Source: Mustelus asterias
Taxonomy: Eukaryota
Direction of reading: 5' to 3'
NCBI RefSeq assembly: GCF_964213995.1
Contig: NC_135822.1
Span: 51,770,001-51,834,000, forward strand
DNA length: 64,000 nt
The notes under the pieces are model-generated. The model was not told where the DNA came from and searched no databases. It worked only from the letters and a program-made list of their open reading frames with translations. A program made the translations under genes and the position numbers. Positions 26,168 through 33,324 of this stretch are shown here, in pieces (positions within the stretch are counted from its first letter, which is position 1; each line of letters starts with the position of its first letter).

Positions 26168-27725
26168 CTTTGATTACTAGCTCAGTAACATCAACAACAC
26201 AGCACTAATATGATCAGGGAAAGCAACATTGAATGTAGGTAGGCCTTTACTTTCAAAATCAGTAACATCACCCTCACAATTCTACGATGACCACGTGAAG
26301 CCTGCCTGAAAGTAAGCCTTTTGTTCCTTCTTCAGTAGCATTGCCATCACAAAACCAAAATAACCAGGGAAAGCAAGGTTGACTGTATTGATGTTGTTAC
26401 TAACTCAGTAACATCGACATCAAAACACCCAATTTAATCGGGAAAGTGATGTTAAATGTAGGCGTTTGGTTACTAACTCAGTAACATCGGCATCACAACT
26501 CCACTATGATCAGGGAAAGAAATTGTTAATGCAGACCTCAGTTTAGAAAGAGAGTAAAATAGCCATCCAAACATTAATGTGATCAGGGAAAGAAAGACTG
26601 TTGGCTTTTGGTTAATAACCCACGAAATCGCCATCACAGCACCACATTGATCTCTTAAAGCAAGGTTGAATATAGGAATTTGGTTACTAACTCAGTAACA
26701 TCATCACCACAGTACCAACAAGATCGCGTAATACAAGCTTGATTATTGTATTTTCTACGTCAGTAACATCACCATTGTAGCACCACAATGACCAGGGAAG
26801 CAGTGTTGACATTTGGCCTTTGCTGACTAATTCAGTAACATCGTCATCATAGCACCGCAATGGTCAGGGAAAACAGGGTCGCATTTAAGCCTTTGATTAC
26901 AAGGTGAGTAACATCGCAATCAGAGCACCATTGTCATCACGGGAATCATGTATGAATGTAGGACTTTGGTTATTAACTCAGTCATAATACCAAAAAGCAT
27001 CACGATGGTCAGGGGAAGCAAGATTGAATGTATGCCTTTGGATACTGACTCAGTAACATTGACTTGCCATTGCAGCTTCACAATTATTAGGGAAAGTGAG
27101 GTTGAAAGGCAGCAATTAGATACTAATTCGGTAACATCACGGTTACATTAACACTATGGCCAGGGAGAGGAACATTGAATGTGGGCATTTGATTCCACAT
27201 TCAGTAACATCACCGTCATAGCACCACAATGATGTGGGAAAGAAAAGTTGAATGTTGTTCTTTTATTACATATTTAGTAATATTGCCATCATAGCACATA
27301 TATGATCATGGAATGTAGATCTTTGCTTACTAACCCATTAACGTCGAAATGAGAGCTCCACACTGAGCAGGGAAAACAAGATTGAAAGGAGGCCATTGGC
27401 TACTAACTCAGCAAGATCGTCGTTACAGCACTAATATGAACAGGGTAAGCCTTTGTTTATTAGGTGAGTAACATTGCCATTAGAGAATTACAATTGTGAT
27501 GGAAAACAAGCAGGCCTTTGGTAACTAGTTCAGCAACATTCCATAAAGCACCATTGTATTCTGGGATAGCAAGTTTCCATCTAAACGTTTGGTTAACAAC
27601 TCAGCAACTTCACCATCACAGAACAAACATGATCACTGAAAGCAAAGTAGAATGTAAGCCTTTGATTAATAACTCAGTAACATCACCATCACAACACCAT
27701 CTTGATCACGGAAAACAAGGTTCAA
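26168..27725. repeat. Diverged tandem array, about 22 copies of a 73-bp unit
   Basis: TCAGTAACA-like anchor recurs about every 73 nt (26182, 26259, 26332, 26405, 26478 ... 27601, 27673); eye consensus GCCTTTGGTTACTAACTCAGTAACATCGCCATCACAGCACCACAATGATCAGGGAAAGCAAGGTTGAATGTAG. Confidence 0.92.
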
Positions 27726-27934
27726 TGCCATCCTCAACACTGAGCTGGTCTTCGTCCGTTCGGAAGTGTTTTCTTTCATCTGACGGCTGTCGTCTAAACC
27801 CTACATATCAAATGAAGTTTTATTTTTACTTTAATTTGGACAGGACTGCGTCCGTTTGTGTCCAGTCCTTGACATGTTTCCCAGACACTGGCAAGTTGTC
27901 GAAATATTTAGTGTCAGCACAGCATCATCCACAA

Positions 27935-28540: not shown

Positions 28541-28899
28541 CGGAAGCAGAGCACAGACTTCAGGACAACTGTAGACGACTCAGTACAGCAGCATTAGTTA
28601 TCATGAACCGAGGGTGGAACTCTCGCAGGCAGACTTATACCACCAGTAACAAGGCCCGATGATATATCCGGGCACAGGTAATGGGGGAGGAGGGGGTGGG
28701 GGTTGCATTTCTTCTTTAAAAAGTCAGAACAGAGGTTTATGATCAGTCACTACAATGTAGCATCTACCGTAGACATATTGATGGAACCTCAACACCGAAA
28801 ACCACTGCCAACCCCACTGTCTAGATCTGGGAAAATAGAGAAACAAGCCAGTCTGCACCCTTTCAACACTATGTCACAGACATCGAAATATGTAATAAT

Positions 28900-29072
28900 G
28901 TTAGGTTGATTGGCCAGGTTAAAAATTGCCCCTTAGAGTCCTGGGATGTGTAGGTTAGAGGGATTAGCGGGTAGATATGTGGGGGTGGGGCCTGGGTGGG
29001 ATTGTGGTCGGTGCAGACTCGATGGGCCGAGTGGCCTCCTTCTGCACTGTAGGGTTTCTATGATTCTATGAT
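28900..29072 (+). mobile_element. HE1-like SINE 3' half
   Basis: GATGGGCCGAGTGGCCTCCTTCTGCACTGTAGGG(TTCTATGA)n; reverse complement of part of 50088-50351. Confidence 0.85.
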
Positions 29073-29866
29073 TTACATTTATTTCAATTAAACTCCATCT
29101 GCCATTCGTCAGCTCACTGTCCCAATTGATCAAGATCCCGTTGCCATCAGAGATAATCTTCCTTACTGACCACTATCCCACCAATCTTGGTGTCATCTGC
29201 AAACTTACGAACCATGCCTCCTATATTCTCATCCAAATCATTAATATAAATGACAAATAACAGTGTACCCAGCACTGACCTCTGAGGCACACCGCTGGAC
29301 ACATTTCTCCAGATTGAAAAACAACCCTCTACAACCACCCGCTGGCTTCTGTCATCAAGCCAGTCTTGTATCCATTTTGCTACCCCTGCCTGGATCCCGT
29401 GAGATTGAACCTGATGCGAGAACCTACCATGTGGTACCTTGTCAAAGGCCTTGCTAAAGTACATGTAGATAGCATCAACTGCACTGTCCTCATCGGCCTT
29501 TTTGGTTACCCCTTCAAAAAACTCAATCAAATTTGTGAAACATGGTTTTCCACTCACAAAGCCATGTTGACTATCCCTCATCTGTCCTTGTGTCTGGAAA
29601 TGCCTGCAGATTATCTCTCTCAAAATACCTTCCAAGAAATTACCCACGACAGATGTGAGGCTCACCGGCCTGTAGTTCCGAAGCAGCCGTTTGCAAACAA
29701 AGGCACAACATTTGCCATCTTCCAATCTTCAGGCGCCTCACCTGTCACGATCGATGATTCAAATATCGCTGCGAGATGACCCGCAATTTCCTCCCTAGCC
29801 TCACACAATGTCCTGGGATACACTGCATCAGCGCCCTGGGATTGATCTACCTTGATGCGCTTTAAG
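29073..29866 (-). mobile_element. CR1 RT fragment
   Basis: ORF 29147..29725: [22 protein letters not shown]. Confidence 0.92.
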
Positions 29867-29887
29867 ACAAAACTGGCAACAAGTGAG

Positions 29888-29975
29888 CTCTCGTCCGGGA
29901 TTTGAACCTGGGATCTCTCACAAACTCAGTCAGCGAAGCCCCCAAAGTGAGAATCATACCACTAGACAAACGGCG
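29888..29975 (-). tRNA. tRNA-Pro(TGG)-like gene or pseudogene with an 18-nt intron-like insert (29923-29940)
   Basis: Minus strand reads CGCCGTTTGTCTAGTGGTATGATT-CTCAC-TT-TGG-G-[GGCTTCGCTGACTGAGTT]-T-GTGAG-AGATCCCAGGTTCAAATCCCGGACGAG, matching vertebrate tRNA-Pro; A and B boxes present, TTTT about 15 nt downstream; acceptor stem damaged and one T-stem mismatch. Confidence 0.85.
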
Positions 29976-31680: not shown

Positions 31681-32414
31681 TTTAAAAAAAAAAATGGCGT
31701 TCTTAAGGAAGGAAGTTTTGAATCCGTGCAGATTCTGATCCAGGAATGAATGATCACAAAACGGAAGTGCAACTGCCGTTGGTATTGGGATGAATCTGAA
31801 GAGTGAAATGTCAATGGCGACATCAGAATTTGTTGACAATCCGGTATGTGGATGTATCTGGTCCAGGAAGGAACTGGAACTAAAAAAGACCGATCAAGAA
31901 TCCCCAGATGGTCTGCAAATTTGAGATATAAAAGCAGCTGTGAATGTCCAAATATGTGAACGGTCAGCAACCGAGGATGGAGTGAAACTAGGGAGAGCAG
32001 GAAAATGGGACGGATGTGGAAACCATTGGGTGCGCGCCTCGGGAGTTTGTGAACTTGGGTACGGTACGAAGCTGAGAAGATTTTTATTCTGAGGTGTTCA
32101 GGAATATGAACGTCCAATATTTGGTTGAGGCGGATGGTGGTGTTAATCGCTAATTCCCAGTGTCTTATTGTGGCGTGTTCGCTCTGAGGAGAAAAAAAAG
32201 ACTGCTACTTATATTAATAGCTGGAAAACGATTTCCTTCAGACACGCAAAGCCTTATTAAAACAAATATAGATATGCCACGGTTATGGTTTGCTCCAAGC
32301 TACAATATATGTTTGCTTTTTTTTGGTGCTGAAACCCTCTTCTTGCTGTGTGGCTCGGATGCTGAGAACTGTTTGTAGTAATTTCTGGTTTATTTTTGTT
32401 TCTCACTCTCACAG

Positions 32415-33324
32415 TTAACTTGCTGGCCATTGTTGTGCTATCCCGTTGGAAGTGCGGCCTCTCCACCTGTACCTCTTGCTATCTGGTGGCCATGGCAACA
32501 GCGGATCTACTGGTCATCGGCACCGATGTCTTTTGGAGGTGGATCAATATTTATTATTTCCCACTGTCTTTCCTATACATCACTCCAGTGTGTCGAGTCA
32601 TCCTCGTCCTGACTCGGGAGGCCAAGGACTGTTCTGTCTGGTTCACTGTCACTTTCTCCTTCGATCGATTTGTGGCCATTTGTTGTCGCAAGCTGAAAAC
32701 GAAATATTGCACCACAAAGACTGCAGCAGTGGTTCTCGCAACAACATTCATTCTGCTCTGTTTGAAACATATTCCTTCTACTTTACATATCAAACAGGAG
32801 AGATAGTCAACAATGTACATTGGTTCTGTGATATTATTCCAAGCTATTTCACCGAGCCAGTATGGGTGGCGTTTGACTGGGTTGATACAATTTTAACCCC
32901 ATTGTTCCCATTCGTTTTAATTGTCTTGCTTAACGCTCTGACAGTCAGACACGTTTTAGTGGCCAGTCGAGTCCGTCAGGATTTGAGGGGTCACAGCAAG
33001 GGAGGGAATCGCAGAGACACAGAGATGGAGAGCAGAAGGAAGTCAGTGATTTTACTTTTCACCATATCTGGCACCTTCATTCTTCTGTGGTCGGCAACAA
33101 TTCTAAAATTCCGACATTATACCATCACTGGAACAAACCCAGTGGACTACCGGGATTATCTGTATGTCCTCTCTCGGGTCGAATTGATGTTGCAGGATTT
33201 AAGTTGCTGCACGAATACATTTATTTATATGGTGACTCAGTCCAAATTCAGAGCACTGGTGAAAGGTGCAATGCAGTATCCGATCACATCATTAATTCGA
33301 CGAAGAGTTAAAGAAAACAATTGA
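32415..33324 (+). pseudogene. GPR139/GPR142-like class A GPCR, main exon with one frameshift
   Basis: ctcacag|TTAAC phase-1 acceptor before VNLLAIVVLS; YLVAMATADLL (TM2), FSFDRFVAICC (TM3), frameshift near 32775, then LTPLFPFVLIVLLNALT (TM5), SCCTNTFIY (TM7), QSKFR (helix 8), TGA ending at 33324. Confidence 0.88.

Follow-up and report, generated by a model that had tools for sequence, protein, structure and literature searches.

The window analysed here is a 64,000-nucleotide stretch of the Mustelus asterias genome. Its minus strand carries a tRNA-Pro-like body that is interrupted by a short insert and followed by a trailer and a LINE fragment (Table 1). An initial annotation of this DNA, made from its letters, had described an 18-nt insert one base past the anticodon, pairing between the insert and anticodon-loop bases 32 to 36 with G-U pairs allowed, a downstream TTTT, and a broken acceptor stem. 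We found all four features in place. Opposite loop bases 32 to 36 lie bases -3 to -7 of the insert, as U.G, U-A, U.G, G.U and G-C. The acceptor stem has lost positions on its 5' side and carries changes on its 3' side. Homology of the copy to its relatives begins at tRNA position 5 and continues as far as the base that follows TTTT. Because it starts only at position 5, the acceptor stem was broken mainly by 5' truncation.

Table 1. Positions of features in the window (coordinates without prefix) and of related copies elsewhere in the genome.
Feature	Position	Strand	Remarks
tRNA-Pro-like body	29972-29887	minus	
5' exon remnant	29941..29972	minus	tRNA positions 5-36, counted in the sequence; positions 1-4 absent
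Anticodon, reads TGG	29942..29944	minus	Likely CGG altered by CpG deamination
N37	29941	minus	
Intron-like insert at 37/38, 18 nt	29923..29940	minus	G at -3 (anticodon-intron pair U32.G)
3' exon, T-loop (B box) intact	29887..29922	minus	Positions 70-71 altered
3' trailer with its terminal TTTT (Pol III terminator)	29869..29886	minus	Same sequence as in intact Pro-CGG genes, contig C85
TTTT	29872-29869	minus	
LINE ORF2 fragment, 5'-truncated, frameshifted	29076..29868	minus	Pfam RVT_1, E = 1.4e-13
High-copy repeat, probably 3' part of a SINE	28890..29075	plus	From coverage profile; sits where the LINE fragment ends
Clusters of decayed intronless Pro copies	C3:136.7-146.7 Mb; C4:147.2-147.8 Mb; C10:120.75-120.90 Mb; C17:70.9-72.2 Mb		
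Arg-TCG copies with intron	C85 and related scaffolds; L153-L164; L135:1635-1727		Pattern matches

The tRNA likeness of the copy is not due to chance, because its T-arm motif is found a single time in the window and in none of 100 shuffles, and because a genome search with the copy gave 40 scored matches, of which the other 39 had E values of at most 1.5e-11. ARAGORN called no tRNA here, with the intron search on or off, and Rfam returned nothing at E <= 1. The fold of the copy is no better than that of shuffles (z = +0.87), a result that we did not count as evidence, as free-energy folding recovers cloverleaves unreliably (z of -1.1 to -2.5 for four intact genes). The copy does not have the intact acceptor stem and cloverleaf of a functional tRNA gene. 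It is non-functional, and as such ordinary debris.

The LINE fragment lies on the same strand as the tRNA-like copy, and its first base is the base directly after TTTT. The initial annotation had seen the terminator and missed the reverse-transcriptase fragment right behind it. By its motifs, this LINE is probably CR1-like. Its 3' end was not seen after about position 29076.

An intron-bearing tRNA-Pro family

Exact patterns searched against the 3.68-Gb genome gave 172 intron-bearing and 10 intronless Pro matches, counts that refer to pattern matches and not to curated genes, with damaged copies included, variants missed and unplaced scaffolds perhaps counted twice. Divided by anticodon, matches with a 13- to 18-nt insert and matches without one number 89 and 6 for TGG, 19 and 1 for CGG, and 64 and 3 for AGG. 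Reversed-pattern controls gave 0. We fetched 30 of 89, 19 of 19 and 12 of 67 loci, plus extra regions. The family spans all three Pro anticodons, not TGG alone. Its insert lies exactly between N37 and N38, its exons join to a complete tRNA body, and ARAGORN calls many of the intron-bearing copies tRNA-Pro with the intron at 37/38. Intact paralogues, whose absence would have counted against the initial annotation, do exist: 44 of 109 distinct copies have the intron and are at most one exon base off an intronless gene.

The exons of these copies are far more alike than their surroundings. For 60 copies carrying an 18-nt insert, we compared the 45 exon bases that the search pattern leaves free. 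They show a mean difference of 0.096, with a median of 0.044. The difference in the same copies is 0.51 within the insert and about 0.6 in the ungapped flanks. Thirty-eight of the 60 are at most one base from an intronless gene, and 22 have at least two differences in the free exon bases. Since the exons are nearly fixed while introns and flanks diverge, we read this as selection on the exons, although recent amplification or conversion could account for part of the conservation.

Most intron-bearing Pro copies lie in large arrays on C71, on C85 and on unplaced scaffolds. Intact single-site genes with an intron are also found outside the arrays (L091 and L092 on C19), and the dispersed copies are bounded by a short leader and a terminator. 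On C85 (1.68-2.98 Mb), identical or near-identical Pro-CGG loci repeat at a spacing of about 650 kb, which suggests very large tandem repeat units.

A second isotype has the same organization. A pattern taken from an Arg-TCG gene on C72 matched 58 copies with an insert and one without, and the single intronless gene looks intact. The Arg-TCG insert is again at 37/38 and measures 16 to 20 nt in 11 copies. In all 11 fetched intron copies, positions 32 and 34 to 36 pair in register and position 33 is unpaired. The C32-G(-3) pair was present in each of the 11 checked.

Pairing between intron and anticodon loop

We compared 35 unique intact combinations of anticodon and intron from the Pro family. 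Positions 32, 33, 34 and 35 pair with intron bases -3 to -6 in 30, 34, 30 and 35 of them, respectively. This amounts to 129 of 140 possible pairs in register, versus 54, 76, 74 and 78 of 140 when the register is shifted in four ways. At position 36, pairing is limited to 8 of the 35. The length of the insert varies from 13 to 18 nt, with its position and the -3 register kept.

Intron base -5 follows the wobble base, as A-U in 10 of 11 types, U-A in 13 of 18 and C-G in 4 of 6. Watson-Crick pairs at this place total 27 of 35, against a shuffle mean of 13.2 (0 of 20,000 shuffles). However, the 35 types stem from about six or seven lineages, grouped by eye, and the shuffle result therefore overstates covariation. 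The tracking of the wobble base is only suggestive of covariation.

The anticodon-intron (A-I) pair, between N32 and intron base -3, is present in 30 of the 35 types. The five types without it are all extant Pro-CGG genes of C85, which are the closest intact kin of the copy in the window. The genes of those arrays (L071-L086), otherwise intact, have U at intron -3, and older dispersed relatives have G. According to the accessible text of PMC8479045, human TSEN requires an A-I pair for the 3' cut, whatever its bases. The C85 CGG genes may thus be poor TSEN substrates.

The Pro introns can be set beside known systems. The human intron-containing families given in the accessible parts of PMC10275265 and PMC8479045 are Tyr-GUA, Ile-UAU, Arg-UCU and Leu-CAA, whose introns are processed by TSEN and RtcB. 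They share with shark Pro a short insert between N37 and N38 and a pyrimidine at position 32 opposite a purine at intron -3. In both, introns vary among family members, and intronless genes coexist with intron-bearing ones, as in human Arg-UCU and Leu-CAA. However, the shark isotypes, Pro (AGG, CGG and TGG) and Arg-TCG, are not in that human list; the shark Pro A-I pair is U-A or U.G, and the copy number is far above the human one, in tandem arrays. Budding-yeast tRNA-Pro(UGG) genes also carry an intron (PMC4090602, in the part available). It is canonical and of the same isotype as in the shark. In yeast all genes of the family have the intron, whereas in the shark it is found with all three anticodons and intronless genes remain.

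Literature searches that had GtRNAdb and subscription journals outside their scope found no paper naming vertebrate tRNA-Pro introns. Such introns are likewise unmentioned in the accessible portions of PMC8450103, PMC11408192, PMC10485636, PMC5499810 and 10.1101/497545. A printed precedent (Squalomix) names no isotype in its available text, where no splicing test was found either, and its Fig. 3A or supplements may give a breakdown. The introns of the shark family are a variant of the canonical tRNA intron and are likely spliced; earlier publications had foreseen them in part.

Intronless genes and the probable removal of the introns

If the introns are removed by the usual route, TSEN would cut at the 37/intron and intron/38 junctions, with the tRNA body and the U32:intron(-3) pair as its guides. 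An RtcB-type ligase would then join the exons into tRNAs identical or nearly identical to the products of the intronless genes. About seven to nine intact intronless Pro genes exist and cover all three anticodons. Therefore, splicing of the intron-bearing genes is not forced by need.

We looked among intronless sequences for traces of spliced precursors. U/T at position 16, a marker of the Pro-CGG subfamily, occurs in no intact intronless gene that we found. Nine matches were returned for intronless copies with T16, as expected of spliced copies of the CGG subfamily, and no CGG case was among them. One decayed TGG copy is intronless and has T16, and its trailer is that of an intronless gene. 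Thirty matches to the CGG trailer included none that was intronless with a recognizable 5' exon.

One of 25 intronless copies has the trailer of an intron-bearing family (L031, C3:136.70 Mb). This trailer scores 33 over 45 nt against that family and 9 against the best intronless gene. Among the best 25 hits of a search with it, the other 23 loci align as intron-bearing genes. L031 also has a 4-nt leader match and is joined to a LINE end of 1.35 kb that has a tandem tail. It possibly represents a copy of a spliced, untrimmed precursor, as its arrangement would suggest. However, L031 has no second example, and the intronless Pro genes of C3, around which intronless copies gather, are 5.5 Mb away; its source may therefore have been an intronless gene, since lost, that had this trailer. 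An inverted partner of L031 (780-1134, minus, versus 1476-2950) lies 325 bp away and is 96% identical over 354 bp. The partner's sequence opens with the first 3'-exon base, a boundary uncertain by a base or two because of a T run, and has the same junction between trailer and LINE.

Could the intron-bearing loci be a tRNA-derived tandem repeat that was passively amplified and is perhaps transcribed but spliced poorly or not at all, with the few intronless genes supplying all tRNA-Pro? The concentration of most copies in large arrays, the damage in many of them (the 22 of 60 above), the intact intronless genes and the missing A-I pair of the C85 CGG genes all fit such a repeat. We nevertheless consider it unlikely. 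The exons are near-identical to those of intronless genes in subfamilies whose inserts and flanks have diverged by 50-60%, and the insert has kept its position and its -3 register across its whole range of lengths. Intact genes also stand alone on C19, and L031 looks like precise excision.

Decayed intronless Pro copies are found almost only within about 6 Mb of a few intronless source genes (Table 1). Such clustering is unexpected for retrocopies and may reflect local capture of nascent transcripts. At C17:72.227 Mb (L107), a copy of the intronless Pro-CGG gene runs beyond its terminator by about 155 nt, as far as the terminator of the convergent Pro-AGG gene, and is followed by a SINE head. 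Its template was either read-through RNA or DNA.

Parent and origin of the copy in the window

The initial annotation had read the copy as Pro-TGG and placed it, in decayed form, in a shark tRNA-Pro family with introns, or among repeats derived from such a family. Membership in the family is supported, and the TGG identity is not. The 19-nt trailer of the copy has 0 of 19 mismatches to L071, L077, L078 and L080, which are Pro-CGG genes in arrays on C85 and related scaffolds, and exon position 16 is T. The 22 nearest copies by intron and trailer read CGG in 20 cases, GGG in one and TGG in one. The D-loop base, intron and trailer of TGG genes were not found in the copy, which matched the CGG subfamily instead. 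At intron position -5 it has G, which would form a Watson-Crick pair with C34. The intron as a whole resembles an older variant with G at -3 that is seen only in dispersed or decayed copies.

Compared with L071, the copy differs at 8 of 68 exon positions, with changes at 4 of 14 CpG positions and at 4 of 54 others. The CpG transitions include the first anticodon base and both anticodon-stem bases. Given that D-loop base and trailer are those of the Pro-CGG subfamily, CpG decay would seem to have produced both the TGG anticodon and the "kept" stem. The stem does stay paired, as had been claimed. We rejected compensatory change in it, both changes being CpG transitions. By these markers, the copy is probably not Pro-TGG and would have a Pro-CGG parent.

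To see what lies next to such copies, we compared flanks across 109 distinct copies. A SINE head or LINE fragment directly downstream was found in none of the 63 copies with shared upstream flanks and in 24 of the 46 with unique upstream flanks, a class that also includes true single genes; 3 of the 24 were themselves the source of the references and so are bound to match. Within the unique-flank class, 17 of 28 copies with the intron and 7 of 18 without it are joined in this way. According to the accessible text of PMC3747384, the SINE HE1, with its partner HER1, is listed for sharks and rays. The SINE next to the tRNA-Pro copies may be HE1, a name that we infer. Two loci (L039 and L139) have a second tRNA-like sequence directly after the tRNA-Pro trailer, possibly through serial template switches between precursors.

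The copy in the window ends at its terminator, as an RNA copy would, and is continued in sense by a 5'-truncated LINE. Because the T-run terminator abuts the truncated LINE, the copy most likely arose as a template-switch chimera of pre-tRNA and LINE, derived from RNA and not a gene decayed in place. Chimeras of U6 with LINEs and SINEs, and pre-tRNA retropseudogenes, are known (PMC4476161, in the part available). The U6 chimeras share with our copy an oligo-U-ending Pol III RNA that is followed, in sense, by a 5'-truncated LINE or a SINE. In our copy, the Pol III RNA is a precursor of nearly full length that retains intron and trailer and lies in sense, unlike the primate tRNA/LINE-1 chimeras of 10.1101/2025.02.02.635956, which in the text available are mostly tRNA halves in antisense.

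It is very unlikely that the copy was once a gene for Pro-TGG or Pro-CGG, decayed in place or duplicated as DNA, with a LINE inserted at its T run by chance: LINE pieces are common in this genome and no poly(A) tail is seen, nor, with the 3' end of the LINE missing, a target-site duplication, but the copy has no upstream homology to any source gene, starts at tRNA position 5 and stops at the terminator, and same-strand junctions of this kind occur in the unique-flank class and not in the shared-flank one.

We hold with good, though not full, confidence the joint reading that a LINE template switch onto an unspliced pre-tRNA-Pro(CGG) produced the copy and that its source family is transcribed and spliced by the ordinary machinery. 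In this scenario, Pol III would make a Pro-CGG precursor that still has its intron and trailer. While priming from its target, the reverse transcriptase would jump from the LINE RNA to the oligo-U end of the precursor, and reverse transcription would halt four bases before the mature 5' end. Later CpG decay would change CGG to TGG in the inserted copy.

The interest lies in the family and not in the single copy. The vertebrate picture of tRNA introns, of their persistence and gain, is built largely on four mammalian families. A broader proposal, which we offer tentatively and rate at somewhat below even, is that tRNA splicing is wider in sharks than in mammals. In that proposal, most Pro and Arg-UCG genes would be spliced by TSEN, with pairing bases that co-evolve with the anticodon, and LINEs would trap processing intermediates. 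The trapped intermediates would then include unspliced precursors (as in the window), a spliced untrimmed precursor (L031) and a piece beginning at the 3' splice site. They would form a fossil record of the gain or retention of vertebrate tRNA introns and of the order of processing. Pro and Arg-UCG genes with and without introns in one jawed vertebrate make a natural comparison. It would allow tests of intron-dependent modification, of tissue-specific intronless genes (compare brain Arg-UCU), of intron-derived circular RNAs, and of the tolerance of TSEN for U-A, U.G and U.U at the A-I position.

Elsewhere in the window, two overlapping plus-strand frames at 32366-33324 resemble, by eye, a frameshifted seven-transmembrane receptor gene. 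A diverged tandem repeat with self-matches of about 64% identity occupies 26170-27730.
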